NCBI GenBank assembly: GCA_963845755.1
Contig: CAWJTV010000033.1
Span: forward strand, 352,001-416,000
DNA length: 64,000 bases
Source: an uncultured Planctomycetota bacterium
Lineage (GTDB): Bacteria > Planctomycetota > Planctomycetia > Isosphaerales > Isosphaeraceae
Reading direction: 5' to 3'
Shown: positions 2,536-63,561 of the stretch, piece after piece
How the letters are laid out: each line of letters starts with the position of its first letter
Position numbering within the stretch: position 1 is the stretch's first letter
Made by a program: the position numbers and the translations under genes
The notes under the pieces: model-generated
Seen by the model: only the letters and a program-made list of their open reading frames with translations
The model's database searches: none
Told to the model about the DNA's origin: nothing

Positions 2536-4790
2536 ATGGCGGGCTCAGACGAGAGGAGATACCGTCCGGTCAAGACGCCGACCGTCCTGCAGATGGAAGC
2601 GGCCGAGTGCGGCGCCGCCGCGCTGGGGATCATCCTCGAATATCATGGACGGTATGTCTCCCTGGACGTGTTGCGCGAGGAGTGCGGCGTCTCTCGGGAC
2701 GGCACGAACGCGTTCTACGTCAAGGAGGCGGCCAAGCGGCACGGGCTGGAGGTCAAGGCGTTCCGCAAGCCGGCCGAAGGGCTGACCACGCGTCGGACGC
2801 CGTTCATCGTCTTCTGGGAGTCGAATCATTTCCTCGTCGTTGAGGGATTCGGCCGGCGGAAGGTCTACTTGAACGACCCGGCGGTCGGCCGCAGGACGGT
2901 CAGCCTGGAGGAGTTCCGGCAGAGTTACACCGGGATCGCGTTCACGTTCGAGCCGGGGCCGCGGTTCGTCAAGAAGGGAGGCCGGCCCAGCGCCCTGCTC
3001 GGCCGTGGTCCGGCGGCTCTCCCGGTTCCGCGCCGCGATGGCCTTCGTGATCCTCGCCGGGCTCGCCCTGGTGATCCCCAACCTCGGCGCGGCCGCGTTC
3101 CAGCAGTTCTTCCTCGATAGCATCCTCATCGAGGGACACCGCGACTGGCTCCGGCCGCTGCTCCTGGCCATCGCGGCGATGGCCGTGATGCGGCTGGCGG
3201 CGTCGGGGCTCCAGCAGGTCTACTTGATGCGGCTGGAGATCCGGCTGATGCTGGCCGAGTCGCTGGGTTTCATGCGACACGCGCTCCGGCTCCCGGTGGC
3301 CTTCTTCCAGCGCCGATTCACCGGCGACATCGTCAGTCGCGCCCATCAGACGGCGCGCGTGGCGGAGCTGATCTCCGGCGAGCTGGCAACCACGGCCGTC
3401 AGCCTGTTGACCCTGGTGGTGTACGTCGCCGTGATGCTCCCCTACGACCCGCCGCTCACGGCCGTCGGCGTCGCGATCAGCAGCCTGAACCTGGTGGCAC
3501 TCCGACTGGTCAGCCGGTGGCGGGTCGACCGGAACCGGACGATCGAGCAGCTCCGGGGCCGGCTGATGGCGGGCGTGATGTGGGCCATCCAGATCATCGA
3601 GAGCATCAAGGCGACCGGCTCGGAGTCGGACCTGCTCGTCCGGTGGACCGGCGATCAGGCCCGGATGATCAACGCGGAGCAGGAGCTGGGCGCTTGCGAC
3701 GCGATCCTGGTCGCATTGCCACCGCTCCTGGCCGGCGTGACGACCATCCTGGTCCTCGGCTTCGGCGGCTACCAGGTCATGACCGGGACCTTGACCATCG
3801 GCGCCTGGTGGCGTTCCAATCGTTGCTCACGGGCTTCAACCAGCCGTTCGGCGACATGGCTCGATTGAGCACCGACGTCCAGGAGTTGCACGCCGATCTC
3901 GATCGAATCGATGATGTCCGCAACCGGCCGATGGACCCGATCTTCCGCCCCACGACGATCGGGCCGGCCGGCGGGGCCGGCGAGTTGCGCCGGCTCAGCG
4001 GGCACATCGAGTTTCGCCGGGTCTCGTTCGGTTACAACCGAGCGGACGATCAGCCCCTGATCAAGGAGTTCTCGCTCGTCGCTCGACCGGGCCAGCGCAT
4101 CGCCCTGGTCGGGAGCTCGGGGAGCGGGAAATCCACCGTCGGCCGGCTGCTGGCAGGACTCTTCCAGCCGTGGAGCGGCGAGATCCTCTTTGACGGTAGG
4201 CCCATGGCGGAGATCCCCCGTGAGGTCTTCGTCAGCTCGGTGGCCCTGGTCGACGCGGAGGTCTGCCTGTTCGAGGGGACGGTCCGGGAGAATCTTGAGC
4301 CTCTGGGACGAGCTGATCCCGACGGACCGCCTGGTCCAGGCGTCGGTGGATGCGGCGATCCACCGCGACCTCCTGTTGCGGCGAGGGGGCTACAGCGCGG
4401 TCGTGGCCGAGCAGGCGCGGAACTTCTCCGGCGGCCAGCGCCAGCGGCTCCAGATCGCGCGCGCCCTGGCGCGCGATCCCAGCCTGGTGATCCTCGACGA
4501 GGCCTCCAGCGCGCTGGACCCGAAGACCGAGCGGGTCGTCAACGACAACCTGCGGCGCCGGGGCTGCACTTGCTTGATCATCGCCCACCGGCTGACCACG
4601 ATCCGCGACTGCGACGAGATCATCGTCCTGAGCGGCGGCCACGTCGTCCAGCGCGGGACCCACGACGAGCTGATCGCCGACCTCCAGGGCGAGTATGCCC
4701 GGCTGGTCTCGCACCAGGTCCTGCCGGGCCGGCGGTCGGCCGGCCGGGCCCAGTCGCGGAACCGCACGGAAGTCGCCGACCCAGGCGTTG
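2536..4790 (+). CDS. NHLP family bacteriocin export ABC transporter, C39 peptidase/permease/ATPase part (several frameshifts)
   Basis: [19 protein letters not shown] (C39 Cys), HFLVV, NDPA; TM domain; Walker [10 protein letters not shown]; signature [18 protein letters not shown]. Confidence 0.9.
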
Positions 4791-7700
4791 ACGGCGCTTC
4801 GGGGTCAGGCCGAACGGGTCGCCGACGACCGAGTCGGCGCCCGACCTGCCAACGGCGTTCTCCCCATTCGAGGCAGAACGTGATCCACCCCGATTTCTCG
4901 TCGAGGAACTCCTGCCCTACAGCCGGCGGGAGCGGACCGCCGCCAACCGCCCGCTGCCGCTCGATGATGCCGAGGCGGTCTGGCTCGTGGACGCCGGCGG
5001 GGTCGACGTGTTTTTCATGCAGCTCGAGCCGGGCGCGATCGAGGGCCGGCGTCGGCACCTCTGCCGCGTCGAGGAGGGGGGCTCGATCTTCGCGATCAGC
5101 GGGGTGCGGGGACGATCGGGAGGGGGCCTGCTGGCCGTGGGGGCCGGACCGGCGGAGCTGCTGAAGTTCTCGCGCGGAGATCTGATCCGGTTGAGCTTCG
5201 AGGAGGGACTCTCCGAGCAGGTCGCCGTGCTGATCGACGACTGGCTGCTCCGCGTCGGCCTGGCGCTCCACCGGGCCGTCGCGCCCCGGCTCAGCAAGGA
5301 GCTTCCTCGGAAGGTGACCGCCGCGTTCGAGCCGGGTACGCGGTACGGCGTGCGCGCGGGGGTCGCCTGGGTGCGCCACCGCTGCGGCTCCTCGTCGTTG
5401 CTCGACCAGGTGCCGCTCCCGACCACCGAGCTCCAGGCGCGGTTCCCGGTGACCGAGCACCTCTGGCTCATGGCAGAGACGGCCTGCCAGGTCACCGTCT
5501 GTGGCACGACCGACATGATCCAGTCGGGTGACCCGTGGGCGGGACTCGACGACTTCCACCGGACGGCCCTGGACTTCCTGACCGAGATCCACGAGCAGGA
5601 GGAACGCGGCCGATGGATGGAGATCCGACGGTCGCTGGCCCATGAGGCGGCCCTCATCGATTCGGTCTCCACGCAGTTGGCCGCGGCGGCCGGCGCGGCC
5701 GAGGTGGCAACGGCCATCCCGGGCGACGGCGAGGCGTTGTCGTCCTCATGCCGCGCCGTATGCCTTGCCATGGGGATCGCAGGTGCGCGATGCCGCCGCC
5801 GGCCGGGGATCCGGGCCCCGAAGCCCCCTGCGATCCCCTGGGCGACCTGGCCCGTTCCTCCGGCTTTCACGTGCGGCCGGTCACGCCTGCCGGAGGACTG
5901 GTGGCGTCGCGCAGGAGAGCCATTGCTCGGCCAGCTCAACGACGACGGCCGGCCTCCCGTGGCCTTGCTGCCGGCGAATCGGTCCACAGCCCCGCGTGGT
6001 GTGACTTATGAACTGCTCGATCACGAAGGCCGCAGACATCCCGTCGAGGATCGACTTGCCGGCCGGGTCGCGCCCACGGCCTGGGCGTTCTATCGTCCGC
6101 TCCCGGACGCACCTCTCGGGTTCCGCGACCTCCTCCGGTTCTGCCGCGGCCTCAGGGGGCTGGCGCGCGAGCTGAGGACCATCGCGATCGTGGCGTTCTT
6201 CGGCGCCCTGCTCGGGCTGGCGATCCCGATCGCTTCGGGCATCGTCGTCGACCGGGTCATCCCCGAGGCCGACCAGTCTCGGCTCGCCATGACTGTGCGG
6301 CTTCCTCGGCGTACTCGCGATCTCGGCGGCGGTCTTCCAGGCGATCCAGGGGTTCCTGGTCATGCGGATCGAGGGGCGGGTCTCGGCCACGCTGATCCCG
6401 GCGATCTGGGAGCGACTCCTCCGCCTGCCCAGCCGATTCTTCGCCGGCGTACTCCTCGGGCGACCTGGCCCTGCGAGCGATGGGTCTCGAGCGAGGTCTT
6501 TCAGCGGGCCTCGGGAGCGGTGGTCACCAGCATCGTGACCGGTCTCTTCTCGCTGTTCAACCTGGGCCTGCTCTTCGCCTACAGTTGGAAGCTGGCCCTC
6601 GCCACCAGCCTGCTCGTGGCGATCATGCTCCTGGTCACCGTGTTGCTGCTGGCCGGCCGCCTTCGCCACGAGGTGTCGATCCGCCGGCTCGACGGGGCCC
6701 TCTCCGGCCTGCTCCTGGAATTCTTCGGTGGGATCATCGCGCTGCGCAGCTGCCGGTGCCGAGGGCCGCGCCCTGGCGCGCTGGGCCCGCCGCTACGGCG
6801 ATCGGCTCGCGGCGGCGATCCATTCTCGGAGGTTCACCAATGTCATTCGACAGTGGCTGGCGGTCTATCCGATCCTGACGGCGATCGTGGTCTACACCGG
6901 CGCCGTGCACGTCGACCCCGATCTGATGAAGGCGGGGAGTTTCCTGGCGTTCAACATGGCCTTCGCAAACCTGGTCGCGGCCGTGCTGGCGGGCTGCTAC
7001 ACCGCGATCGGCCTGCTCGACCTGCTGCCGATGTGCACGCGGATCCGGCCGATCCTGGAGGAGAGCCCCGAGTTCCCGGCGGCGGTGATCGAACCGGTGC
7101 GGCTCGCCGGAGCCCTGGCCCTGAATCGGGTCTCGTTCCGATATCCGGGGCAGGACCAGGAGACGAAGGTCGTCGAAGCGGTGGACATCCAGGTCGCGGC
7201 CGGGCGAGTTCGTGGCGATCGTCGGCCCCTCGGGTTCGGGGAAATCGACGCTTGATGCGGCTCCTGCTCGGATTCGAGGTCCCCGACTCGGGCACGGTCA
7301 CCTATCGACGGCCGCGAGCTGGCCACGCTCGACCTGCGGGAAGTCCGGCGTCAGATCGGCGTGGTGCTCCAGCATGCCCAGCTCATGCCGAGCGACATCT
7401 ACAGCAACATCGTCGGGTTCGCCCCGTCCCTGGGCCTCGACGACGCCTGGCACGCCGCCCGGCTGGCGGGCCTCGAGGACGACATCCGCGCGATGCCCAT
7501 GGGCATGCACACCCTGGTCGGCGAGGGCGGCGGCAACCTCTCCAGCGGCCAGCGCCAGCGGCTCTTGATCGCCCGGGCGATCGTGCGCCGGCCCCGGATC
7601 CTCCTGCTCGACGAGGCGACCAGCGCGCTCGACAACGTTACCCAGAGCATCGTCAGCGACAGCCTCACCCATCAACTCAAGGGCATCACCCGGGTCGTGA

Positions 7701-7843
7701 TCGCCCATCGCCTCGACGGGATCGTCAAGGCCGATCGCATCTACGTCCTCAGGGATGGACGGATCGTCCAGTCGGGTAGCTATGATCAGCTCCTGGCCGA
7801 GCCCGGCCCGTTCCGCGACCTGGCCCGCCGCCAGATGCTCTGA
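4791..7843 (+). CDS. second NHLP ABC transporter permease/ATPase part with N-terminal cNMP-binding-like region; possibly fused to the upstream part (frameshifted)
   Basis: [22 protein letters not shown]-domain; [11 protein letters not shown] helices; [28 protein letters not shown]; stop at 7841-7843. Confidence 0.85.
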
Positions 7844-10859: not shown

Positions 10860-10896
10860 GAATCTCGAATCCGGAATCTCGAATCCGGAATCCCCG
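10860..10896. repeat. intergenic heptamer tandem repeat (GAATCYS)n
   Basis: gaatctc gaatccg gaatctc gaatccg gaatccc; related tract near 52208-52236. Confidence 0.6.
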
Positions 10897-11124
10897 ACTC
10901 TTCCACAAACTCCGAGAGCCTGGATCGGCTCCCAGGTCAGTCATGCACCGGGCTCGGGAGGCCCGCGCCGAGAGTGCCCGTGGGGAACACGGCTAGGCGA
11001 TATTCCAATAAGGAATGAAATTGCCGAACAATAACTATTTGGAATGCGTACGAGAGAGAAGTGACCTGGAAGACCTTAGATCGGCGTCGAACATCCATGA
11101 TACTGGGAAAAGGAGATCCTGACG

Positions 11125-12333
11125 GTGATCGGCGATAACCGTACTTCGATCGATATCGCGGAGCATTGCGTCTCCGTCTGCCCGTCGGCCGTCCTGCGCG
11201 TGGCCGTCCTGTTCAGCGGTGGCGAGGCGCCGGGAATGAACGCGCTGCTGCGTGCGATCGTGCGCGTGGGCATGAATCGATATGGAGGGGACGTGATCGG
11301 CGTGAAGGAGGGATTTGCCGGTCTGGTGCGGGCGGTCCGACGGGTCGAATTGGGGCACTGGAGCCTTGCAAGTCTCAGGGACGACATTGATACTCACGAT
11401 GGCTTGCGTGGCGTCGGGCGTGCGTCTCAGGAATTGGTCCGGCTGGACCGGGCCTCGGTGAGCGGGCTGCTGGGCCGCGGTGGCATCCTGCTCGGGGCGT
11501 CGCGGTGTCCCGAGTTCCATGAGCCGGTGGTCCGCCGGCAGGTGATCGATCTCTTGAGCTCCGTGGGGGTTCGTGGCGTGATCGTCTGCGGGGGAGATGG
11601 CTCGATGGCCGGCGCGGACCGGCTGGCCGAGGAGAGCGCGTTGCGGGTCATCGGCATCCCGGCGACGATCGAGAACGACCTGGCCGCGACCGAGCCGTCG
11701 CTGGGTTTCGACACGGCGGCGAACACGATCACCTGGGCGGTCAGCCGTTTCACGGACACCGAGGCCCAGCATCCCCGAATCCTGGTGCTCGAGGTGATCG
11801 GCCGCCACGGTGGCGACCTGGCGCGGCTGGCGGCGCTGGCCTCGGGAGCGGAGGTCGTCGTCACCCCGGAGCACGGTCCGCTCACCGAGGCCGGGATGGA
11901 GGAAATCGCCGTGCGACTGGGACGCGCGATGCACCGAGGCCGGCGACAGGCGATCGTGCTGGTGGCCGAAGGCGTCGCCCTGGACCCGTCGCTTGCCGGC
12001 CGCGACGAGACGACGCCAACGGTCTGGCTCGCCCATCAGCTCCAGGCGTTCTTGCGAGGGGAGGCGCGGGGATTCCCAGACCTGGAGGTCCGCCCCTGCA
12101 TGCTGGGCCATCTCCAGCGCGGGGGGGCGCCGTCGGTCGCCGACCGGATCCTGGCCGCCCGGTTTGCCGGCGCGGCCTGGAAGGCGATCGCCAGCCCCCG
12201 CGAACGGAGCGGCGTCCTGGGAGTGCGCGGCGGCGAGCTGTTGCTCCAGGACTTCGCGGTCCTGCCCGACCCCGAACGCACCGAGGCCGCCGAGCAGCTC
12301 GACCAGCTTCAGAAGGATGTGAGTCATTGGTGA
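11125..12333 (+). CDS. 6-phosphofructokinase (PfkA) family protein with non-canonical motifs
   Basis: SGGEAPGMN, GGILLGASR, GGDGS, PATIEND, EVIGR, VAEG, LGHLQRGG. Confidence 0.85.
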   Translation: MIGDNRTSIDIAEHCVSVCPSAVLRVAVLFSGGEAPGMNALLRAIVRVGMNRYGGDVIGVKEGFAGLVRAVRRVELGHWSLASLRDDIDTHDGLRGVGRASQELVRLDRASVSGLLGRGGILLGASRCPEFHEPVVRRQVIDLLSSVGVRGVIVCGGDGSMAGADRLAEESALRVIGIPATIENDLAATEPSLGFDTAANTITWAVSRFTDTEAQHPRILVLEVIGRHGGDLARLAALASGAEVVVTPEHGPLTEAGMEEIAVRLGRAMHRGRRQAIVLVAEGVALDPSLAGRDETTPTVWLAHQLQAFLRGEARGFPDLEVRPCMLGHLQRGGAPSVADRILAARFAGAAWKAIASPRERSGVLGVRGGELLLQDFAVLPDPERTEAAEQLDQLQKDVSHW

Positions 12334-12417
12334 GGTTGTCCGGTGTAGGGTGGGCGAAACCGCTCTACTAAACCCGGATACCGTTCTCGGACGGTTCCTT
12401 GATCCCGGGAGACTGAG

Positions 12418-13452
12418 ATGTCCGACAGCGAACGCATTCACGTCGAGGTCGCGGTCGCCCTCGTGGCGGACGCGAACCAGCGGGTGCTCTTGACCTTGAA
12501 TCCCGGCTGGGGGAGCTTCACGCTCCCCATGACCCGCCGGCGCCGGGGCCGGCAGGGGAACGAGCCGCCGTCGCGGGCGGCCCTCCGCGCCGCGGCCGAG
12601 ACGCTGGGGACTCCGGTTCGTTTGAACGAATCGCACCGCGGCCCCAAGCCACTCATGGCCCGGCTCGAATCGGGCCGGGAACTGGTGGACAAGATCTACG
12701 CCTTCCATGTATTCCACGTCGAGCCTCATCCCGATTTCGCCGACCGACTCCGGATCCCTCAATCGCACCTCTGGCTCTCCCCGCACCTGGTCCTGTCGGG
12801 AGTCTACGAGCCGGTCTCCGAATCGGCGCGATTCATCCTCCGCAACGCACTGGCCGATTTCGACATCCCTGCGCGCTCGCAGAATACCAGCGTCCTGATC
12901 GCGGAGCGCAACGACCCGGCGCGAGGCCGGCTGTTCCTCGTCCGATGGAACCCGAACTGGGGTTACGCCCTGCCATCGAAGCGCTGGGAGCCGCCCGACC
13001 CGGCGAAGGCCGATGACCCATCGGCCACCGCGATGGCCGGCGCCGAGCGCATTGCGCGGGACGAGCTGGGCCTGGAACCGGGCAAGGACGTGACGCTCAC
13101 TCCGGCGAAGTCTCCCGAATACGCAACCCACGGGGTCAGCGTCACCGAGTCGGCTCCCGCGTTCGGAGAAGCGACGGACTATCATCATCGTCTCTTCGAC
13201 GCCCAGCTCCACCATATCGAGAAGCTCCAGTCCACCCAGCCGCTAGCCTGGATCAGCGAGGAGGAGATCCACCACGGCTGGACGTCGGCGTCTCAGGGCG
13301 AACCGGGTTCCCCATCAGGACATGCCGCCCGGGTCTCCCGCACCACCTATGAGATCCTGATGCACCTGGGCCGGATCGGCGAGACCGTTGACCCGGAGCT
13401 CGAGGTCATGGAGAAGTACTGGCTCAACGAGTTCGGCGGTGGCGTGGGATGA
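12418..13452 (+). CDS. protein with two degenerate NUDIX-like domains
   Basis: two similar units: VLLTLNPGWGSFTLP...AALRAAAETLG and FLVRWNPNWGYALP...GAERIARDELGL. Confidence 0.55.
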   Translation: MSDSERIHVEVAVALVADANQRVLLTLNPGWGSFTLPMTRRRRGRQGNEPPSRAALRAAAETLGTPVRLNESHRGPKPLMARLESGRELVDKIYAFHVFHVEPHPDFADRLRIPQSHLWLSPHLVLSGVYEPVSESARFILRNALADFDIPARSQNTSVLIAERNDPARGRLFLVRWNPNWGYALPSKRWEPPDPAKADDPSATAMAGAERIARDELGLEPGKDVTLTPAKSPEYATHGVSVTESAPAFGEATDYHHRLFDAQLHHIEKLQSTQPLAWISEEEIHHGWTSASQGEPGSPSGHAARVSRTTYEILMHLGRIGETVDPELEVMEKYWLNEFGGGVG

Positions 13453-13524
13453 CGAGGACCCGGTGGGGATCGTCATGTGAGAGAGGGTGAAAGTGAGGGT
13501 TCTTCCCGCTGTCGGAGCGTGGCC

Positions 13525-14980
13525 ATGCCCGTTTCCTGGACCATCAAGGCCCGACGTCACCTACGGCAAGGGCTGGCCGAAGCCCTGTGCAGGGAAAGTC
13601 ACAACCTGGGAAACCCCGGGCCTGAGTCGCAGCGATACTTCGGCGTGCTGGAGAGGACCATGGACAATCTCAGCGAGGTTCTCGCGGTCACCTTTCCGGG
13701 AAAGTCGGTCGTCGTGCAGGACCAGGTGATCGGATTCCGGCGCAAAGCAGGCCAGTTCGTCCTGATGGTCGAGGTCTTCGATCCGGGGGATGAATCGTGG
13801 TCGGGTGAGGTCAGTCGGAGCGGCCCGTACGTGGTCAAGATCGGCCCTACGGAGTTCCTGGAGCGGGAGCATCGCGGCTGGGCCTGCTGCCGGCCGCCGG
13901 GCCTGCGGCACGACCTGGTGTTCCTCGACCTCGAAGGCATCCACGAGGACGGGGATCGCGGCCCGCTCATCAGCCTGGTCTATGGCGACGCGCAGCAATT
14001 CCTCGGCGTCGAGACCACGACCACGCTCGAGGCCGCCGCGCTCGAGGCCGTGCGGTTCGGCGTGCCCACGGTCGCCTCGATCGGCTTTGTCATCGTCGCG
14101 CTTTACGAGCGGATCGGACACTTGCTCTACGGCCAGTCCTTCATCGACGACCCGGCGCGGGCGGACTATGCTTTCGACCTCCCCAAGCTGACCGACCGCA
14201 TGGCGCAATGGGATTTCGAACCCGTCGTGCCAGGCCGCCCGCCGCGACGTCAATACGCTGGCTCGGAGCGGCCCCGAGCAGTTCCTCGACCCGATCGACT
14301 ACCTCGACTACGTACGTCAGCTCGTCCCCTGGAAGCTCGCGGACGGTTCGACCCAGGCTCCCACGGCCGACCTGGAGGCGATGCGGCAGCTCGGCGAGCC
14401 CGTGCCGACGCGCGCCGACCTGGTCCCCCGCCTGCTCCGCGGATGTGCCCACGGCGACCTGCACGGGCGCAACGTGCTGGTCGGGATCGTGCGCGAGCAG
14501 GCCCTGTGGCCGACGGTCTTCGACTACGAGGACATGGGCCCGTGCAACCTGATCGGCTGGGACTTCGTCAAGCTCGAGACCGAGCTGAAGATCCGCGCCT
14601 ATCTCGAGGTCTTTGCGGGGGTGGTGCCCAGCGCGTTCGTTCAGAGCGTGCAGAAGTTCGAAGTCGCGCTCGACGCGCGTACGGAGGAGTGTCATGCCAA
14701 CCGAAGCTGGCCGATGGTCGGCGAGGCGGCGACCCCGGCCGATCGGCTCCGCGTCATTCTCTTGGAAGTCCGACGGATGGCCGTGCGCCACCTCGGAGAC
14801 AACGTCGGCCGGCCCAACGACTGGCTGGAACAGTATTACTTCCTGCTGGCGTGTTACGGCATCTGGACGGGCAAGTTCGACAACCTCCAGCTCCGCGAGC
14901 GAATGGGCGCCTTGATCTCGGCCGGAGTCGCCACCGCCCGGCTGAACTGGCCCCGTCTTGAATCACGAATTGCACGTTAG
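13525..14980 (+). CDS. aminoglycoside-phosphotransferase/kinase-like protein (frameshift near 14220)
   Basis: YVVKIG..EREH N-lobe; HGDLHGRNVL catalytic loop; VFDYED; WDFVKLETELK. Confidence 0.75.
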
Positions 14981-15035
14981 CCGCCTCTCCTCACCGCAGA
15001 AACTGCTAACTGAAGGAGAAACGGACCGGACCCAT

Positions 15036-15350
15036 TCACCACAGAGTCACAGCGCGGGCGAGCCGCAACCAACCAATCAAAAGAGACTCACCACAGAGTC
15101 ACAGAGGACACAGAGAGGAATTTTTCGATGCCTTCTGTTGATGCAACCTCTTGTGTCTCGAGACGTTATGAAATCATGCACGGTGTACAAGATTCTCGAA
15201 CTTAGTAGTACAGAGCACACAGAGAAGACCATAACGCATTGTAATTTCATGAGTGTACAGAGTCATGTTTCCTCTCATGACGTCTTTTCGAGAATCAGAA
15301 TTCACAACTGTTTCTGTCTTCTCTGTGCTCTCTGTGGCTCTGTGGTGAGA
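15036..15350. repeat. intergenic inverted-repeat element built from CACAGAG-type units
   Basis: TCACCACAGAGTCACAGAGGACACAGAG (15088-15115) is the near reverse complement of CTCTGTGCTCTCTGTGGCTCTGTGGTGA (15321-15348); extra partial copies at 15036 and 15210. Confidence 0.75.
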
Positions 15351-15386
15351 TATCCGAACCCGATCTGTTCTCCCAAGGACAATCCC

Positions 15387-16262
15387 GTGAGCGCACCAAT
15401 CTCAACCCCGACACTCGAAGCCACCCTCAAGGTCCCGTTCCCGAGCTATCACCGGCCGCTGGCCTGGGCGCATCAGTGGCTTTCGAGCGGCGATCCCGAG
15501 CGCAAGAGGGTCGCGGTCGAGTTGCTCCGGACGCTGTACCAACGGTATGACCACGCCGTGGCGGTCGGCCAGGAGCTGGTCCTGGCCTTGATGGAGAGCG
15601 GCAGGGAGGCTCAGCCCGAGGCCGAGGCGACCCTCCAGGGGATCGATGCCCGGTTTGCCAAGCTGGACGAGGAGCTCCTCTGCCGGTGGGGCCGGTTCTA
15701 CAAGGACCATGGCGACCGGTACCTCGGGCTGCCCTGGCTGGTCACGGAGATCCCGCCCAACCCCGAGGAAGCGCGGCCGTATTACCTCAGGTCACTCGAG
15801 AAGTACGAGGAAGCGTTTCGCATCCGTTCGGGGCATTACCCGGGGATCAACACGGCCACGCTCCAGTTCTTGCTGGGCACGCTGGCCCGGCCGGCGGGCA
15901 CAGCGTCATCCCCTGAGGGCAACGAAGTCGCCAAGGCACAAGCGATCGCGAGCCGGCTACTCGAAGGGCGCGAGAAGTGGTCGGAGTTGACCCCGAAGGA
16001 TCGCACGATCTGGCACCCCGCGACGGCGGCCGAGGCGCACTTGCTGCTCCAGGAATGGGACCCGGCCGCCCGCGAATACCGCGTTGCGATAGAGAACAGC
16101 CGGGGCGCGCTCCGTGACATCGAAAGCATAGGACGTCAGGTTTGTCTGATCGTCATGGGCTGGAGTCGTGTCGGCGTAGCGATCCCCGAGCCGTTCACCC
16201 AGCTCCATCTCTTATTCCCCAGCGTGCCACGGGAACTCATTATCCTATTAACACAATTTTGA
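15387..16262 (+). CDS. TPR-sensor / MAP3K TRAF-binding-like tetratricopeptide protein
   Basis: GTG start at 15387; motifs WGRFYKD, YEEAF...HYPGINTATL, WHPATAAEAHLL, IESIGRQV. Confidence 0.7.
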   Translation: MSAPISTPTLEATLKVPFPSYHRPLAWAHQWLSSGDPERKRVAVELLRTLYQRYDHAVAVGQELVLALMESGREAQPEAEATLQGIDARFAKLDEELLCRWGRFYKDHGDRYLGLPWLVTEIPPNPEEARPYYLRSLEKYEEAFRIRSGHYPGINTATLQFLLGTLARPAGTASSPEGNEVAKAQAIASRLLEGREKWSELTPKDRTIWHPATAAEAHLLLQEWDPAAREYRVAIENSRGALRDIESIGRQVCLIVMGWSRVGVAIPEPFTQLHLLFPSVPRELIILLTQF

Positions 16263-16320
16263 CGATGGGGTCCGCAATGTCGCGCACACCAGGGGAACTC
16301 CGCAGCAGGAGGCCGAGAGG

Positions 16321-17044
16321 TCATCCACGTGAGGCGAACCGCCTGAGGTCATCGGCCATCTGACCGAGACGGTCTGCCAGATCACGGGGCGCTTTGAGAC
16401 ATTGCCGAAGAGTCGCAAGGAGTTGTTCGATCTCCTCGAGGGTGACCTTGACCGCATAGGCCCCGGGGGCCGGGCTCGCGTTGAGGAACTCCCATATGGC
16501 CCTCTTCCAACCTTCGTCACCCAGGAGGGTGCACACCAACGCCAGGTCGGCGGCCGCGTATTCATCTTTGGCCCTCGGGCCGCTGCGCTGTCGCCGGACT
16601 TCGTCTCTGGCCGTCTCCAGCTCCTCGCGCAAGGCCAGGTTCGACAACCTTGGCCGCATCGTCGTGGATCGCCTCAGGCTGGATGTAAACGCGCGCGACC
16701 AGCCGTTGCACCATGTTGTAGGAGTTGATGATCCCATAGCCTGATTCCCGCCGCTCGATTTCGTACCCCGCGTCATAGGCACGGGCGGATTTCTCGAATT
16801 CCCCCCACCTGCGAAAAATCCCGCCTTTTGTCCCGAGGATATAGGCCAACTGGGCGGCGATCTCCATCTCCGAACGACCGAGCCTTTCCCCGGGCTCGCG
16901 GGACTGTTCGAGTCGCTCGAGGGCGGTGCGAAGGTGGCCTTCGGCCTGCTCGATCAACGCGACCGCCCGCGGGAAGTCCCCGCGGTCGCGGGCATTCATC
17001 GCGTCCGACTTCAGTTTTCTTGCCAGATCGATGACATCAGACAT
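16321..17044 (-). CDS. TPR-like helical protein (frameshift near 16640)
   Basis: MSDVIDLARKL...GDFPRAVALIEQA...LGTKGGIFRRWGEFEKSARAYDAG; C-terminus in ORF 16321..16782; start overlaps the stop of the upstream gene. Confidence 0.65.
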
Positions 17045-20000
17045 GATTGAGGCTCCCTCGGGACGCGATGGTATCGAGGACCTTTCCGATTTCGAGGGCG
17101 AGGGCCGCGTACTCGGTCCCGGAATAGTCCTGCAATCGGTCCCGGAGATTCCTGCCGACCTGTTCGAGCGCACCCAGGTGGGGGTCGTTGGGGTCGGATT
17201 CTTGCTTGGTGAGTTTCTCGGTCAATTTGTACCGGCCGTCCAGGTAATACCAGGCCGCCAGCTCATGCTCGATCGCGGCCTTTTTGATGTGCTCGGCGAG
17301 GGACTCGGCGAACAGCACACTCATCTGTCCCGCTTCGGCCACCGCGGGGCCGGCGATCGCCTTGGCCCCGCTCAAGAGGAGCTCCTGGACGGGTCGTCCC
17401 CCCGGCTCTCGGCGCCATTCGATGGAGTCGGCGACCACCTGGTAGGTGCGCCCGGCGAGAGCGTCGCGCCGGTCCCCAGAGACGGCTGATTCGGATCGAA
17501 TTCCGCCAGGCGGTCCTTGAGGTTCTTGAGTTCCTTCAGGCTGAACCGCGTCGGCTTGAAGAAGTCGAAGAGGGCCCGCCTCGCGGGGTCGCCGTCCAGC
17601 TCCACGGCCTTGGCGGGGTCGCCGTCCGGATCGTCCGAGTAGAAGATGAAGATCGGATCGGTGTCATTGACCGCGAGGCGAACCCCGATCTCGAAGAAAA
17701 CGTTGGGGCGCCAGCCGGTCCAGTCGGCGATGCAGACCCTCGTGCAACGGATGGCCGGGTAGAGTCGTTGCTCGACCAGTTGGGGCGACGCGCAATCGAG
17801 CCGTGAGACGAGCCTGGTCGCCTCGCCGAATCGACCTTCGAGCTTGCCCTTCAAGGTTTCGTTGACTTTCTTGCCGTGATCGGGGTCGAACCATTGGAGC
17901 AGCAAGACCTGCTCTTCGGGTTCGCGGATGCCCGGCGTTTCGCCGAGGCGCCTCACCGCATCGAACGCGGGGAGATCGAGGTAGGCATCCGGCTGGAGTC
18001 TGAGGGCATCGTAGCCGGCTTCAAGAGCGTTGGCGATCTGCTTGATCTCCTCTTTTCTGGTGCGAATCGGGATGAGCGAGGCGAGGTTGAAAGGGAGGGG
18101 GTTGCCGCCCGGTTCGTCGTTCGTGAGCGTGATCGTGACGCCCCGCCGGACCGCCGAGCGAATCCCCAGGAACAGCATCACCGCGCAATCGAGCCCCGTG
18201 ATGTCGAACACCGCGAGGTCGCATTCGCAGAGGGCGCGGACGGTCCGCTCGTAGGCCGCCGAAGTCGCGAGCGCCTCGGTGGCCAGGATGACCTCGGGGA
18301 CGGTCTCGATCTCGGGACCCGCGACGGTTCGCGAACCCAATCGCTTCTTGAGCTTCTCGAGCGCCTGCGTGACCCGTTCCTCCTGAGTCATCTCACCGGG
18401 AGGGTCCCCTCTCCCTTTGACGAGGACACACCCGATCCGGCCCGCGAAATCCAACCGAAGCGGAGGGATCTTGCCCAACGCGGCCTCGAAATCCTCGGTG
18501 CTGTACAGACGCTTTCGGGTCCAGTCCTCATCCTGCCGGTCCGGCCGCCACTCCGCACGGAGCGGCTCGCACGCGGCCCAGATGTCGGGGAATCCCTGCG
18601 CGAGGGCCGGCTTCGGTCCGTGTCGGATGATGGCTTGATCCACCTTCATGGGCTTGCCGGTCCGGCCCTCGAAGCGGGTGTGACCGACGATTGATGCGAC
18701 AGCGTCGATGACCTTGCCCTTCTCGCTTGCCGTCAGCTTCGGACGAGGCCATAGGCTCGCCAGTTGCGTCCTGAGGCCTTCGATCAGCCCGACTCTTTCC
18801 GTCAGCCTCGTCTCGTCGGTATCCGCGGCTATCTTGCCTTCGCGGTCGAAGATGCGGAAGTGGAGCAACTGATTCACGGCGGCTACGACGATCAGATTCT
18901 TACCCTCGCTCGGGATGTCTCGTGCGTCATTCACCGAGGACATCAATCGTAGGTCGTACCCCTCGAAGCGGATGACATACCCCTTGAGCGTCTTCACCGG
19001 CTCCTCGATCCGACCGGGCTTGTCCACGAGGAGGAACCTCTTCTTGTTGTAGAGGTACGCGGTGATCAGTCTGTTGAGGACGGAAGCCTGCGGGCTGAAT
19101 AACGCCTCCTCGGAACTGTTCAGCCAGATCGTCCCCATCTTGCGCGGGCGTAGGTTCGCGTCCAGCGCCGGGCGCGATCTCGCTCGCCGCCGCCTTGTAC
19201 GCATCGGCGCGGGCCTGCGGCGAGCCACCCTTCTCCTCGACCTCCTTGAGCCGATCAGCGACTTTGCTGAGGGAATGTTTACTCACCTTATTGATCACAT
19301 CGCCATGTTTAAAATCCATAATGCAGAGCCGCATGAGATCGGTGAGCCCACCGTCGCCGCTCCCGGACAGGAACCAGGACCCGATGGACTCGGCCTCGAG
19401 TCCGTCGAGGCGCGTGTCGGTCCAGTAGCCGTCGGACGCCTCCGTGTCGTCCCTGCCGAAGCCGACCGCCAGGATGACGACGTCGAACTCCCGTCGGTCT
19501 TCCCCGCCAACCTGGACGAAGGGCCTCTTACCGGCGACACCGACTTTGATCTCTTTGCAATCACATCGAGGATGGGGCAACCTCTGACCCAGGCGGGATC
19601 GAAGCCGATCCCACTCTTTGTCGAGTTGCTCGACGACTTCCACCGCGTTTTTCGCACTCCAGGGCAATATCGGCACGTCGGCCTGATCGCCCAGCTCGGT
19701 GCTGTAGGGCCAGTCGTAGATATATGGGTGGATATATCGCTTATCGCACCCCCTCTGGAGCCGCATGGTATCCCCGAGCTCCTCGAACACCTGGCATTCT
19801 CGAACGCCCCGCACGGCCGCGGCGGCGGCGGCCGTCATCCCGGCAATCCCGCCCCCGATCACGGCAACCCGGCTCTGGCCGGACAGGATGCCGCCCTTCG
19901 CCAGGGAGTTGACCAGGTTCAGTGCGCGGACCTGCTGGAAGTAGACGGTCACATACCTCGCGAAACAACCCAGGACGTAGATCCCCGGTTTACCGGGTAC

Positions 20001-20066
20001 TCGCATCAGTCGGAGCAGCTCGGTCCGGTGCTCGTCATCGGTCTGAGGTTCCTTGGGGAATGACAT
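17037..20066 (-). CDS. multidomain protein: FAD/NAD-dependent oxidoreductase plus two nucleoside 2-deoxyribosyltransferase/TIR-like domains (two frameshifts)
   Basis: VAVIGGGIAG, FDVVILAVGFG, SGSGDGGLTD; C-terminal CDLAVFDITG..AVMLFLGIR..LPFNL and VCIADWTGWRPNVFFEIGVRLA; GGAGGG RBS before ATG 20066. Confidence 0.7.
18666..18971. mobile_element. MITE-like element inserted in frame, with terminal inverted repeats and target-site duplication
   Basis: direct repeat CCCTCGAAGCGG at 18666-18677 and 18960-18971; inner ends GTGTGACCGACGATTGATG vs reverse complement GTACGACCTACGATTGATG (16/19 identical); offset 294 bp. Confidence 0.8.
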
Positions 20067-20435
20067 CCCTCCCTCCACTTCGACATCGAACCTGGAGAAA
20101 CCGGTCGGCCGAGTCGGTCGCGACCCCGGCTCGGTCGAGGGTTCCCAGGTGGGAAAAGACCGAACGCGGGACTGAGACAGGCTGGAAGGAACGGGACAGG
20201 ATGGGTTGTTCGACGGCATGTCCCCGACGCCTCTGCGTTTTCATCCCGGTTCACGCCATGCCTGAAGGATCAGTCTACAAGGTCGATCAGGCCAAGTCCA
20301 TCGCGCGGGGGCCGCATCCCGAGAAATCCGCAAGTGCATTCGAATCGCGATGGGGAAGGTGTACGATGAGCACGTGGCCGCCCCATGCCGAGGGGTGACT
20401 TCGATGCCCGTATCGCGTCGATAACCGGAGGTCCC

Positions 20436-21530
20436 ATGAGTCCCGAAGTCGAGATGACTCAGCCGGGTCGGAGCCGACCTGCCGCACCGATTCCGCTGGT
20501 AGATCGACCCATGGTCGAAGACACGGACATGGTTGAGACGCCCGACGAAATGGCGAATTGGCCGGCGTTGGTCGATCGTCTTCGGCGCTGCAGCGAACTG
20601 ATCAGCCCGGTCTTCCACGATCGCGATGCCGAGGCCAAGGATCACCAGAGATACCATCGACTCCTCACCACCCTGGCTGCCGTCTTCGGTACAGGCGCCG
20701 TCCTGTTCGCGATCCTGCAACTGGCGTATCCGGATCTGCTCGGTGGCACGACCCTGGAGGTCGTCGAGGTCGTGGCCGTGGTCGCGGCGCTCGCCGCGGT
20801 GGTGATGGGCGTGATCTCGGGCCGGCAAAGTCGGTGGCTACTCGAGCGGCATAAGGCCGAGCGGCTCCGGCTGGCCAAGTTCCGGTTCCTGATCGACCCG
20901 GCAACCTGGAGTGACCGCCCGGAGGACGTCGAGCATCGGGTCGCGGCCCTCCGCGCCGAGGTTGACCGCATTCAATCAATTACGTCACGCCAGTTCCGAG
21001 AGTGGACCGAGCAGGAAGATGTGCATCTGGAACCGCATCAGCGGCAAGACCAGCCCACCGGGGAAACGCGCGACCAACTGGTCGACTACTATCGGACCAA
21101 ACGCCTGTTGTTCCAACGCGATATCTTCCGCAGCCGGGCCAAGCGGCACGATCGATGGGATCGTGACAGCCGTCGCCTCGGGCCAATCCTGTTCCTCGGC
21201 AGTGTGTCCGCAGTCCTGGTCCACTTCGGGATCGACCTGTATAACCGGCGGAAGGGGTACAATGTGGACACCACGCCATTAATCCTGCTGGCCGCGGGCT
21301 TGCCCGTGGCCGGTGCCGGCATCCGCACCCTGCGCACGGCGTACGAGTTTGCTCGAAACACCAGTCGCTATCGCGCAAAGTCCGTCGCGCTGGATCGACT
21401 TGACCACATTCTTAAGGAAGAGCAGGATCCTCAGTCAGAGATTCGTTTGTTGGGGTACTCGGAAGAGCTTCTGGAATTCGAGCATCATGAATGGTGCCGG
21501 CTCATGATCGAGGCGGAGTGGCTTCCGTGA
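20436..21530 (+). CDS. SLATT/DUF4231-like membrane protein (two 2-TM units)
   Basis: GGAGG RBS; TM pair then RWLLERHKAERLR; YYRTKRLLFQRDIF; second TM pair then RYRA...EELLEFEHHEWCRLM. Confidence 0.65.
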   Translation: MSPEVEMTQPGRSRPAAPIPLVDRPMVEDTDMVETPDEMANWPALVDRLRRCSELISPVFHDRDAEAKDHQRYHRLLTTLAAVFGTGAVLFAILQLAYPDLLGGTTLEVVEVVAVVAALAAVVMGVISGRQSRWLLERHKAERLRLAKFRFLIDPATWSDRPEDVEHRVAALRAEVDRIQSITSRQFREWTEQEDVHLEPHQRQDQPTGETRDQLVDYYRTKRLLFQRDIFRSRAKRHDRWDRDSRRLGPILFLGSVSAVLVHFGIDLYNRRKGYNVDTTPLILLAAGLPVAGAGIRTLRTAYEFARNTSRYRAKSVALDRLDHILKEEQDPQSEIRLLGYSEELLEFEHHEWCRLMIEAEWLP

Positions 21531-21584
21531 GACGCACGGGGTATCGAGTTTGAGCGATTTCGCTCAACCAGAAAGCGGTGGACC

Positions 21585-21872
21585 TTGACATACAGACCTC
21601 GTCCGATCGATACGATGCAAGTCGAACTGACGCCCGAGCTCCTCCAACTCGTGGAACGATTGGCTGAGAACGTCCATGACGTCTGGGCAGCCAACCGGCT
21701 GGCGGCAGGCTGGAGACTCGGCCCCAGCCGGGATGGCGACCTCAAGCAGACCCCCTTGCTCGTGCCGTACGCGGAACTGCCCGAGTCGGAGAAGCACTAC
21801 GATCGCGACCTGGCACTGGCGACCCTCAAGGCGATCCTGGCGCTGGGATATCAGATCGAGCCAATAAAATGA
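21585..21872 (+). CDS. stand-alone RyR (ryanodine receptor repeat) domain protein
   Basis: YRPRPIDT..V.L...L..LVERLAENVHDVWA..R...GW..GP.RD...K..PLLVPYAELPESEK.YDR...TLKAILALGY. Confidence 0.9.
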   Translation: MTYRPRPIDTMQVELTPELLQLVERLAENVHDVWAANRLAAGWRLGPSRDGDLKQTPLLVPYAELPESEKHYDRDLALATLKAILALGYQIEPIK

Positions 21873-22028
21873 GGTCCAGGATCACGCAGCAGGGAGCGAA
21901 GCGAGACTCGCGTGGCACCGAAGGAACACTGCATGTCTGGTGCTCTTGACAATCTCGTTGGTGGTCTCCACAAGATGATGATCCCTGACATCCTCGACCA
22001 TTCCGGAGATACGGCGATAACTCGGGGT

Positions 22029-22712
22029 ATGTGGTGGAAACGTGGCACCCTGCTCGCGGGGCTTCTCGCGGTTCCGACGCTCGGGATCGGTGACACAGGC
22101 ATAGAACGAAAGGTTCAGCCATTGGGAGGCCAGAAGACACGCGCCGCAACCGAAGGCAGGAAGTTCTCCCACGAAGAGACCCTCCGCTGGATTGGGGAGA
22201 ACAAAGCGTGGCGGCTGGCACGGAAGAACCGGCCGATCTGGGCCCGGCCGGTCGAGCCGGAGGAGGTCGGCAAGGAGTTCCAGACGGCCGATCACGTCAG
22301 GGAGAAGGCCCCCGCTGGCGTTTGGCTCTGTGTGGGAGTGGTCGGCGAACCGTGGTTCCAGGCTTTCGAGAAGATCGAAGGCAAATACGAGCGCGACGGC
22401 CAGGAAACCCGGACCTTCGCGTTCGATGGGAATCCACGGACCTACCGGAAGTACAAGCCCAAGGGGACGATCCGCAACTGGGTTGCGCAGGTCAAGGGAC
22501 CCGGCATCGCGGGGTTTTATGTCCGGCCAGGGTACGATCCCGCCCGCCCGCTCTATTCACCGCCCGGCGGATACGTCGTCAAGGACGACGTGGCGGATCC
22601 CTATCGCGACGAGCCGAAAGACGTCTGGCTGGTCCAGCAGTCGCTGTTCGAGAGCACCTATGAAATCATCCGGGATCGACGACCGGGCAAGGCAACCCCG
22701 AAGCGTCGATGA
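22029..22712 (+). CDS. hypothetical protein, PGDYG-like duplicated fold (start uncertain)
   Basis: two similar units GVWLCVGVVGEPWF..KYE and GGYVVK...DVWLVQQSLFESTYE. Confidence 0.5.
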   Translation: MWWKRGTLLAGLLAVPTLGIGDTGIERKVQPLGGQKTRAATEGRKFSHEETLRWIGENKAWRLARKNRPIWARPVEPEEVGKEFQTADHVREKAPAGVWLCVGVVGEPWFQAFEKIEGKYERDGQETRTFAFDGNPRTYRKYKPKGTIRNWVAQVKGPGIAGFYVRPGYDPARPLYSPPGGYVVKDDVADPYRDEPKDVWLVQQSLFESTYEIIRDRRPGKATPKRR

Positions 22713-59802: not shown

Positions 59803-60023
59803 GGTCCTCCTCCGCGATGTGAGCGATTCACACCCGACCATGATCTTCTCATCCGGTACCATCCGGTTCAATCGCCCGCGAGGAATGCCGAGCTTCCGAA
59901 CGACCTTCGTTGCGGATCAGCGGGGAGCGATCGGATATACTATCGGGAGGTGTCGGGGTCGCGGTGCTCGGCGACGAGATTCCCGGTCTGGGTGAGGAGT
60001 GCCTGCGCCGGCGGATCGCCGAG

Positions 60024-63000
60024 ATGGCCTCTGGTGAGGTATCGGGGATGACGACGGCTGGGGGGCGTGTCGGTGCGGCGCTGGTGATCGGGGTCGGCCA
60101 GTACCTGCACTCGGAGCAGGTCTGGCCACTCCGGTTCGCCGCGCGCGATGCGGAGGCAGTGGGGGGCATCCTGATCGATGCCGAGACGTGCGGCTTCCCC
60201 TCCCAAAGGGTCAAGGTGCTCACAGATTCAGACGCAGGCCGCGACGCCGTCGCCCAACACCTCTCCAAGTGGCTGCCCGAACAGGCCAGGGGGGCCGAGA
60301 TCGCCGTGATCTACTTCGCCGGACACGGGACGGTCCACGCCGTCGGGCGGCGCGAGGAAGGTTATCTGCTCCCCTATGACGCGGATCCTGAGGATCTCGT
60401 AACCCGGGGAATCCTCATGACGGACCTGGCGGTGCTGGATCGAGGCGATCGCCGCTCCCACGGTCGTGGTCTGCCTGGACTGCTGCCACGCTGCCAAGGT
60501 CATCGCGCGGAGCGGATTGCCGGCAGGAGCCGCCATGCGGGATATGCGAATCCGGCCGGCGATGCTCGAGTCGCTGGCCGGCCGGGGGCGATATCTGATC
60601 GCCTCGTGCGACGACGGGCAGGTCTCCGTCGAGGCCGAGACGTGGGGACACGGGCTCTTCACCTATCACCTCCTGGAAGGCATCCGCGGGGCGGGCGACC
60701 GCGACGGCGATGGAAAGGTGGGTCTCGCCGAACTTTTCGAATACGTCGCGGAAGCTGTGGAGCGGGATGCCCAAGCCGTCGGCGTCGTGCAGCGGCCCTG
60801 GAGCAGCTCGATCGGGCCGGGAGGCGCCTTCCTCGCCACGCCTCCTCCCGTGGGGCCGCTCGGCGCCGCCCCGCAGAACATCACCGAGCCACCGCCGTGG
60901 GTCGAGATGGGCGACCGCGACTGCGACGATACGAATGTCTTTGACGTACGGGAGGGGCAGCCCAGGCCGATCGACGCCGTGATCGCCCGGCTGGCCGAGC
61001 TGCGTCGCACGCGCGACCCGGCGGCGGTGCCCGAGATCTTCGGCGGGCTGGTGCATGCGTCGGACGTCGTCCGGGACGAAGCCAAGAAGGCCGCCCTGCG
61101 CCCTGGGCTGGGAGAAGACCTCGACGGCGGTCCTCGCCCTGGCCCGCCAGGGCGGCGGGACCGCGCTCCGGACGATCCTCGAAGGCCTCGCCGCGTTCGA
61201 GTCGCATCGCGACGTCGTGGCGCTCCTGGACCGCCTGGTGGTCTTCCTCGGGGGCGACCTGCGCACCCAGGCGATCCTGATACTCGATCGTAAGCGGTTG
61301 GTCCTGGGGATGGAGAAGGCCGCCGCGGTCTTCCGCGCGATCCAGAGCCCGCTCCGGCTGACCCGCGTGCTCGGACAGGGCCTGTTCACGTCGGCCTATG
61401 CGGCGACCGACGAGGACGACGAGTTCGGAGTCGTCGTCCGGGTGCTGCGGCCCGAGTTCGCCGGCCAGCCCACGATCCGGACGAAGTTCCTCGACATCGG
61501 CCGACAGTCCCGGAAGATCGTCCATCAGAACCTCGTGTTGACCCGCGAGGTCCGCGCTTTCCCCGAACATGACCTCTATTTCGTGGTCCGCGATCATGTT
61601 GACGGGACAACGTTGCATTCCTCGCTCTTCGCGGGCTGTTCCTATCGCCAGCCCGAAATCGTCTCGATCTTGAAGCGAGTCACCGCGGCGCTGGACGCGC
61701 TCCATTCATCGGGAATGGTCCATGGCGGTGTCAAGCCATCCAACATCTTCCTGGCGAGTGACGGTCGCGTCGTGCTCGGCGATCCGATGCTCCCGATCCC
61801 GGCCCTGGGAGCCTCGATGGAGCGATTGTCCTACGATTACCGATACGCCGCGCCTGAGTTGTTCCAGGGGACCGGTGCGGGCGGACCGGCCGCCGACCTC
61901 TACAGCCTGGGGTGCGTCGCCTACGAACTGGCCTGCGGCCGGCCGCCGTTCGTCGCCGACAACCCGTTCGAGCTCGCGGCGATGCACCTGCACTCGCCGT
62001 TAGAGCCGCCCCGTCATCACCGGAGCCGGCTCGGCTCCGGCGATGCCCTGCTCCTGAAACTGCTCGCGAAGGCGCCGTCCGATCGCCACGCGACGGCCCG
62101 AGATCTTCTCCGCGACCTCGACGGGCTTCAGCCGGGATTCGTGGACGTGTCCGACTTGCCGGGCCCTGGCTGGGATGCCTGCACGGGACTGGGTAGGCTC
62201 CAGCCGGGATTCGTGGAAGCATCCAACTTGCCGGACGACGCTGCCGGAAGTCGCCTTGATGACCTGGATAGCCGCCGCGAACAGGAGCTGAGGGCGATCG
62301 ACGACCCCTCAAGCCTCGAGAGTTCCCAAATCGGGACGCCCGGATCATCGGCTCCGGCCACTCGGGAACCGACTCCGTCACCGGAACCGCGGACGCCACG
62401 ACCGGAGGCGGAAGCCCTCGATTCTTCGGTCTCTGGCGTTCCCATTTCCCAACGACTCCAGGATGCCGTATCGATCGTCTCGTTCGATCCCAACACCATG
62501 GCACCGTCAACGGGGGCGACTCCCGGACCGGCCCGGGTCGGCCTGGAGTCTCTCCCGCATCGGCTCGGCCGTTACGAGATCATCCGGCTGCTCGGCCGCG
62601 GCGGCATGGGGTCGGTTTACCTCGCCCTGGACCTGAGCTTGCGCCGCCAGGTCGCACTCAAGGTCATGGAGGGTGCCGGCCCGACCGTTGGAAATGCGAT
62701 GAAACGCTTCCTCCGCGAGGCACGGGCCGTGGCCGGCCTGCGCCATCCGGGGATCATGCAGATCTACGATATCGGCAAAGAGGAGGACACGCTGTTTCTT
62801 GCCCTGGAGTACGTCGGCGGCGGGACCCTGTCTGGGCTGTTGCGGAGTCGAGGGCCGATGGAGCCGGAGTCGGCCGCTCGGCTGGTACTGGGACTCGCTC
62901 AGGCGGTCCAGTCGGCGCACGAGCAGGGGGTCATCCATCGTGATCTCAAACCCGCGAATATCCTCATGACCGAGAATGGTCTGACCAAGATCTCGGACTT

Positions 63001-63557: not shown

Positions 63558-63561
63558 CCAC

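Follow-up and report, generated by a model that had tools for sequence, protein, structure and literature searches.

A modular APH-fold kinase and TPR-S operon of Planctomycetota, probably a nucleotide-signal conflict system, and an in-frame ISKra4-type MITE

We analyzed a 64,000-nucleotide stretch (the window) from the genome of an uncultured Planctomycetota bacterium of the family Isosphaeraceae (14.3 Mb, 64% GC; the window lies on contig C33), in which nine contiguous genes had been predicted to form a nucleotide-centered conflict island. The island is a real, conserved and modular conflict operon, best placed as a variant of TPR-S/nucleotide-signal immunity. Its fixed core is an intact APH-fold kinase and a TPR-S protein, usually with a NUDIX protein lacking the catalytic box (dead NUDIX) and an intact NUDIX protein before them, a RyR protein after them and often a divergent LysR gene. 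The slots between the core genes hold interchangeable immune cargo, namely, TIR-STAND-TPR, NDT-TPR, SLOG/cyclase, TrkA-RyR and SLATT proteins. We put at about 0.6 the probability that the plus-strand genes represent the form taken in this genome by a modular Planctomycetota anti-invader signaling operon, probably anti-phage and acting by cell suicide, that would be gated by a nucleotide or NAD signal and end in membrane effectors. All coordinates are positions in the window unless a contig or locus label (C or L) is given. The core and core-associated genes are as follows.

12418 to 13452, plus strand: protein with two tandem NUDIX-fold domains (fold model) and no canonical Nudix box, core-associated
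13525 to 14980, plus strand: TCAD9-like APH-fold kinase with intact VVKIG, HGDLHGRN and DYE motifs, core gene; one frameshift near 14220
15387 to 16262, plus strand: TPR-S protein (Pfam, E 5e-13), core gene; start inferred from the same-genus ortholog
21585 to 21872, plus strand: stand-alone RyR-domain protein (Pfam), core-associated, at 13 of 24 kinase loci

Loci were collected by searches with the double NUDIX protein (67 homologs) and an intact kinase ortholog. NUDIX loci with no kinase in view (L015, L020, L024, L026, L027, L029 to L033 and L038) were excluded, and weak NUDIX matches in two genomes (G120 and G108) were dropped, there being no system genes nearby. The set so obtained comprised 24 kinase loci from 23 Planctomycetota genomes. 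TPR-S was found at all 24, with tblastn sufficing for 23 and Pfam revealing the remaining one. A NUDIX-fold gene was present at 16 loci, RyR at 13, a divergent LysR at 12 and the double NUDIX at 7; the full-length Pfk variant was present at 5, the PGDYG-like gene at 3, the island SLATT at 2 and the FMO-NDT gene at 1. When the count was limited to the 19 loci that the kinase search by itself had recovered outside the window's own genome, the numbers were 19 for TPR-S, 11 for NUDIX, 10 for RyR, 9 for LysR, 3 for Pfk and 0 for FMO. The usual order is a LysR gene divergent from a run of optional Pfk, dead NUDIX, intact NUDIX, optional TIR-STAND-TPR, kinase, TPR-S, RyR and cargo. Cargo at the kinase loci includes TrkA-RyR, SLOG/TPR-S/cyclase, NDT-TPR, SLOG-SLATT, RelA-NUDIX and nSTAND1-WD40 proteins, and TIR or DUF4062 with STAND/TPR occurs at at least 9 loci. 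Several partners are also fused: the kinase to TPR-S at at least 4 loci, NUDIX to the kinase at 2, RyR to TPR-S and a cyclase at 1 and NUDIX to SLATT at 1. The co-occurring island genes are single copy in the 14.3-Mb genome, and the kinase has a patchy range (15 of 121 genomes of the family and 5 of 401 of the phylum). The prediction of a conflict island whose genes recur together was thus borne out for the kinase, TPR-S, NUDIX and RyR genes, which are linked in other genomes. Three further observations were made at these loci. A protein without a Pfam match (L019:16770-17891; NUDIX-like plus cupin-like by eye) is found at 6 of the 24, a membrane protein without a Pfam match (L012:3939-6236, L025:15716-17824 and L014) recurs at 3, and a cytidylyltransferase-like protein fused to an NAD kinase (L019:5754-7118) is encoded directly downstream of LysR.

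The kinase ortholog gave a confident structural model (predicted local distance difference test [pLDDT] 88.4) with conserved catalytic motifs. Besides a peptide-modifying kinase, its fold matches include APH, choline, MTR and sugar kinases, and none stands out as the closest relative; the presence of MTR kinase among the closest matches (Z score 14.8) points to small-molecule kinases. Intact orthologs scored 55 to 76 bits against TCAD9, with a cutoff of 40, and the two split halves in the window scored 16 and 38. Weak MAP3K_TRAF_bd matches were found at the kinase/TPR-S loci. The double NUDIX protein was likewise modeled (pLDDT 84.8), and every listed Foldseek match was a NUDIX-fold protein. 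The catalytic Nudix box, scored with a pattern that we take to represent it, was found in none of the 35 alignment rows of the double NUDIX; the neighboring single, intact NUDIX at related loci keeps the box, with the strict pattern in 5 of 11. The double NUDIX is therefore probably a noncatalytic ligand binder, as judged from its sequence.

The other plus-strand genes of the island, encoding Pfk-like, SLATT and PGDYG-like proteins, are optional cargo.

11125 to 12333, plus strand: Pfk-like protein of the island clade, optional cargo (PFK by Pfam and NCBIfam); the fourth PFK paralog of the genome
20436 to 21530, plus strand: double-SLATT membrane protein (NCBIfam SLATT), optional effector; start inferred from a ribosome-binding site
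22029 to 22712, plus strand: PGDYG-like protein with a hydrophobic N terminus (signal peptide by eye), loosely linked terminal gene

The window Pfk keeps the ATP-side GGDGS motif and Arg72, and it has Glu in place of Asp127, Ile in place of Met169 and Ile in place of the Thr of the GGT motif. Asp127 is the general base of PFK according to the available part of PMC12203962. The island clade has 28 members (support 95). Asp127 is kept in 22 of its 28 rows versus 92 of 92 other rows, and the GGT Thr is lost in all 27 members with residues at that position; the Asp127Glu change is common to the window Pfk and its two closest relatives. From these residues, the predicted acceptor site of the clade is relaxed. 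A double-NUDIX match lies on a contig of the same length for 11 of 27 island-clade Pfk matches versus 1 of 92 others (paired by eye), and two further pairings were confirmed from the loci. A housekeeping role was rejected for the island Pfk, given the three other PFKs in the genome. At L020:7338-9602, a TIR-PFK fusion with an unrelated PFK of a different lineage lies directly upstream of the double NUDIX, the place that the island Pfk takes elsewhere, and is a second recruitment of PFK. Elsewhere (L030:803-2068, L031 and L084:17642-17935), only the first 70 to 100 residues of Pfk are left, fused to or just before a NUDIX gene.

The island SLATT was found in 5 genomes of the family, all with the kinase; it is at the same locus in 2 and adjoins RyR in 3. 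The PGDYG-like gene is present in 9 of 121 family genomes, 4 of which have no kinase match, and a fourth link to the kinase was found in G651, where the two genes are 12 kb apart. Its family assignment stood only indirectly: the protein has no Pfam match of its own and shares 30% identity (E 1e-14) with a protein that weakly matches PF14083. An ESM Atlas search with it returned only unnamed matches scoring below 0.9, and no paper on PGDYG was found in the literature searched.

Between TPR-S and SLATT, the plus-strand run is interrupted by two genes on the opposite strand.

17037 to 20066, minus strand: FMO-like flavoprotein with two NDT/DRHyd-like domains and a helical tail, an LmuA-type effector; two frameshifts
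16321 to 17044, minus strand: TPR (TPR-S-like) protein of the inserted module; one frameshift

The first had been called an FAD oxidoreductase with two NDT/TIR-like domains; FAD-binding matches were obtained, and the NDT match was weak (E 0.0045). The two genes are fused in homologs of 1,169 amino acids. The NDT-NDT region has 473 relatives, and among the 56 that were scanned, the N terminus is FMO-like, caspase, trypsin, TIR, CHAT or cyclase, and 10 proteins gave no Pfam match; several of the 56 carry a C-terminal TPR or TPR-S. The invariant Glu, which we take to be the catalytic residue, is retained in the second NDT domain and lacking in the first. No strong homolog of the FMO-NDT protein was found in the 120 other genomes of the family, and a PDB sequence search with an intact homolog gave no match. 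Because the block occurs at only 1 of the 24 kinase loci, lies on the opposite strand and is absent from the syntenic locus of a same-genus genome, it is separate from the core. It is a mobile module with a swappable N-terminal effector.

That same-genus genome (G657) carries, in the same slot between the CYTH gene and glgX, genes for Pfk, the double NUDIX, a remnant of the intact NUDIX, the kinase, TPR-S, RyR, a SLOG/SLATT-type protein and PGDYG; the FMO block is missing from it. In the window, the CYTH gene and glgX also flank the island, according to a Pfam scan of the window's open reading frames (ORFs), and the GC content of the island is about that of the remainder. All nine genes proved to be real, with the order, strands and domain calls of the original prediction upheld by Pfam, NCBIfam and fold searches apart from the two partial cases above. 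The E values were 5e-76 for PFK, 7e-33 for RyR and 3e-5 for NUDIX, the last in addition to the NUDIX fold, and SLATT scored 57.6 bits (NCBIfam cutoff, 41). Long antisense ORFs such as 11035-13215 were rejected as genes, and a scan for promoters and terminators gave results at chance level. Compared with intact homologs, three genes are split by four frameshifts, one in the kinase (near 14220), two in the FMO-NDT gene (near 19190 and at 17450) and one in the TPR gene (near 16650 to 16700). They are probably assembly errors, because the extra base at 17450 is present in one near-identical short-read contig and the adjacent housekeeping genes, glgX and an amidohydrolase gene, are split too; this was shown at 17450 only, the contigs being too sparse for the other three sites.

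How could such an operon work? Upon infection, TIR, NDT or SLOG enzymes would release a molecule derived from NAD+ or a nucleotide. The intact NUDIX would remove this signal molecule and so set a threshold, and the dead NUDIX would bind it. TPR-S would gate the kinase, which would phosphorylate a small acceptor of the ribose or nucleotide type, and RyR may relay the signal to the SLATT pore or a TrkA-gated channel, with the result that the cell is killed or arrested. SLATT is a signal-responsive pore in the accessible portions of PMC7159879, PMC9503650 and bioRxiv 10.64898/2025.12.03.692087. The Pfk-like protein would be an accessory, either a sugar-phosphate kinase with an altered acceptor or a near-dead ATP/ADP sensor. 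The minus-strand block would be a second, separately acquired module in a cargo slot, and it may supply the signal enzyme otherwise missing here.

Several points weigh against this anti-invader reading. Some of the 24 loci end at contig ends and the genomes are kin, so that the counts are not independent and no statistic is claimed; 11 loci have no RyR and 8 no NUDIX, short contigs accounting for some of these absences. The window copy has neither the intact NUDIX nor the TIR-STAND gene. Its LysR ortholog lies about 105 kb away (L041:13968-14774, at C33:468967 of the host genome, G000), has 68% identity to the LysR of L019 and is divergent from a flotillin-like gene (named by eye). Core partners, namely, the divergent LysR, the intact NUDIX and often a TIR-STAND-TPR protein, were thus invisible in this copy. 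Among the structural matches of the kinase, the peptide-modifying LxmKY (Z score 15.5) comes out on top, level with MTR kinase, and the acceptor may therefore be a protein or peptide. The ligand roles of TPR-S and RyR are background from the literature. Finally, no PADLOC model names any core gene, in line with the earlier view that the combination is not a named system.

We weighed three other explanations. One is a LysR-controlled regulon for metabolite repair or detoxification: damaged nucleotides, sugar phosphates or an antibiotic would be cleared by the APH-like kinase together with the two NUDIX proteins and the Pfk variant, and immune genes would do no more than gather alongside. The divergent LysR at 12 of the 24 loci, the antibiotic and sugar kinases among the structural neighbors of the kinase and the nucleotidyltransferase-NAD kinase fusion after LysR in L019 would all fit. 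However, the partner that always accompanies the kinase is TPR-S, with a fusion of the two at 4 loci, and the TIR-STAND, SLATT and RyR genes are part of the same-strand run rather than its neighbors, which makes such a regulon unlikely. We give as little credence to the idea that the system is real in the lineage and the window copy is a decaying relic. There is no intact NUDIX here, and only a short remnant of it in the same-genus genome, LysR is displaced, the base of Pfk is changed, and there are four frameshifts and a transposable element (see below) inside the FMO domain. Yet one frameshift is contradicted by the near-identical contig, neighboring housekeeping genes are split as well, Asp127Glu is shared with the closest relatives, and the kinase motifs are intact.

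In the original prediction, the nine genes together make up a single dedicated system whose central signal generator is the Pfk or the NDT protein. The genes are contiguous, the minus-strand module occupies the place that a different NDT-TPR gene takes in L019, ahead of the same SLATT-RyR pair, and the second NDT domain retains its invariant Glu. The distribution speaks otherwise: at the kinase loci, the FMO-NDT block (1 of 24), SLATT (2 of 24) and the full-length Pfk (5 of 24) are too rare for the three blocks to be one conserved unit or for Pfk or the NDT protein to be central. The position of the block on the opposite strand, its absence from the syntenic same-genus locus, the lack of a strong homolog in the 120 other family genomes and the pairing of the NDT-NDT family with many other effectors also argue against a nine-gene system, which we regard as very improbable. 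The modular anti-invader operon, with Pfk and the FMO-NDT block as cargo, accordingly remains our preferred reading.

The original prediction had missed a miniature inverted-repeat transposable element (MITE) inside the FMO gene, a finding independent of the defense island.

18676 to 18961, minus strand: 286-bp MITE lying in frame within the FMO gene, bounded by terminal inverted repeats of 21 bp and flanked by a perfect target duplication of 8 bp
C11:558125-559545, C11:365214-366634 and C27:240631-242051 of the host genome (G000): three near-identical 1,421-bp ISKra4 elements with target duplications

Together with its target duplication, the MITE adds 294 bp, or 98 codons. A 95-residue stretch of the FMO-NDT protein is missing from homologs and recurs in unrelated proteins of the genome, including an MMPL-like transporter, WD40 proteins and a HEAT-like protein (named by eye). 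The genome has six full copies and one interrupted copy, in the window and on contigs C36, C37, C11, C34 and C13. A protein search of the 121 family genomes gave 195 matches from 59 of them, most lying in frame within proteins of unrelated kinds, and the 150 matches listed were all free of internal stops; a search of 115 genomes from other families in the class found no copy. An ESM Atlas search with the peptide gave no match. One 21-bp end of the MITE is identical to the ends of the three 1,421-bp elements, with which it shares no internal sequence and whose transposase belongs to the ISKra4 family (205.8 bits; cutoff, 205). These elements have likely been active recently and are the candidate mobilizer of the MITE. 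With its terminal inverted repeats, its target duplication, no transposase and a cognate insertion sequence, the element is a MITE by its sequence features. The target matched at 6 or more of 8 positions at 17 of 32 MITE matches versus 7 of 1,020 controls, and in 27 of 34 copies, the host's best coding frame agreed with that of the MITE on each flank. The median pairwise ratio of nonsynonymous to synonymous substitution rates (dN/dS) was 0.42 over 30 copies, with pairs that are not independent, and this low value may reflect tolerance rather than function. At L044, several matches lie close together with near-identical left flanks, suggestive of local duplication.

A bolder synthesis, which we offer tentatively and hold to be rather doubtful, would see here a new class of bacterial immune signaling. 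A TPR-S-gated APH-fold small-molecule kinase, a bacterial analog of ASK1, would write a phosphorylated nucleotide or sugar messenger that a live and dead NUDIX pair edits and RyR reads, with the PFK fold recruited twice; alongside, the ISKra4-mobilized MITE, which measures exactly 98 codons together with its target duplication, would be a family-wide donor of a new 95-residue domain under purifying selection. Should the operon be confirmed as an anti-invader system, even in the more cautious reading above, it would add a kinase-centered branch to bacterial nucleotide immunity, show a glycolytic enzyme fold co-opted for defense and give testable roles to bacterial RyR, TPR-S and TCAD9, with animal counterparts in calcium channels and ASK1. 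The MITE provides an example of selfish DNA that donates protein domains in frame, for which a candidate transposase, target duplications and many dated copies are at hand, so that the origin of new protein domains from mobile DNA becomes directly testable.

A few other features of the window were recorded.

14980 to 15390, no strand assigned: dispersed intergenic repeat with inverted CACAGAG-type arms and 80 blastn matches in the genome

This repeat falsely extends the following ORF, that of TPR-S. Upstream of Pfk, a short tandem repeat unit of a second dispersed family (10860-10895) lies beside an AT-rich stretch, and the region yields 368 matches. Pieces of a Peptidase C39 ABC transporter, with low-complexity sequence between them, are found at 2536-7843. 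At 59910-63954, caspase-like, Ser/Thr kinase and DUF4384 genes follow an HTH-IrrE-type gene, possibly a further conflict locus.

Among known systems, the vWA-MoxR-VMAP systems have effectors that include TCAD9/APH kinase, NUDIX, SLATT and TIR/DRHyd domains, with planctomycetes among the hosts (Kaur et al. 2020, PMC7159879, in the portion available). The TCAD9 kinase domain is common to both; RyR, TPR-S and phosphofructokinase are absent from the accessible part of that description. Membership was rejected in the absence of MoxR ATPase, vWA and VMAP genes nearby: none was found in the window and no MoxR or VMAP at the scanned loci, with one vWA-SLATT fusion among related genes. FMO is a known effector of long Lamassu in the available text of PMC12663957, and the N-terminal FMO domain here matches LmuA (PADLOC PDLC03858, E 6e-74; intact homologs, E 1e-81). 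However, the match reaches only position 426 to 432 of the 827 of the profile, and the C terminus here is NDT-NDT. Lamassu membership was rejected for want of the LmuA C-terminal domain and of adjacent LmuB (SMC ATPase) and LmuC, which were found neither among 13 locus ORFs by PADLOC nor among 59 window ORFs by Pfam. Type VII Thoeris (TIR plus SLATT) has a similar SLATT membrane effector downstream of an NAD-derived signal (bioRxiv 10.64898/2025.12.03.692087, in part). Kinase, TPR-S, NUDIX and RyR are no part of it, and the words nudix, ryr and kinase do not occur in the accessible text of that preprint. Thoeris was rejected because the locus has no TIR match by Pfam and only a 35-residue PADLOC TIR-effector match within the NDT region. 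CBASS and Pycsar were rejected as well, there being no nucleotide cyclase at this locus; class III cyclase domains are cargo at 3 related loci.

At the level of single proteins, the window Pfk resembles ATP-dependent PfkA in fold, Arg72 and GGDGS and differs at the general base, Asp127; the double NUDIX shares the fold of Nudix hydrolases and lacks their catalytic box. Rickettsia palindromic elements are a known case of in-frame repeats, and the available part of PMC10969869 covers ORF-bearing MITEs as well. Like them, the MITE is a small repeat in frame in unrelated genes that encodes a conserved peptide; unlike the Rickettsia elements, as described there, it encodes 95 rather than about 50 amino acids and has clear terminal inverted repeats and 8-bp target duplications. 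It also differs in sharing its ends with an ISKra4 element of the same genome and in being confined to one family among the genomes searched.

No description of the operon or the MITE was found in the literature searched, whose reach did not extend to the founding TPR-S papers, so an earlier description is possible. Immune systems centered on TPR-S (Pfam PF20308) and driven by NAD+ signals were reportedly described by Burroughs and Aravind in 2020, and they come closest to the operon. As in those systems, with their threshold logic and their coupling of TPR-S to NDT/DRHyd, TIR, SLOG, cyclase, caspase and trypsin domains, TPR-S here scores above the cutoff and has NDT, TIR, SLOG and cyclase neighbors at related loci. 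Its pairing of a kinase with TPR-S resembles animal ASK1. Unlike those systems as reported, the operon has an APH-fold kinase at its core, along with one dead and one live NUDIX protein, RyR and LysR, and Pfk is optional.

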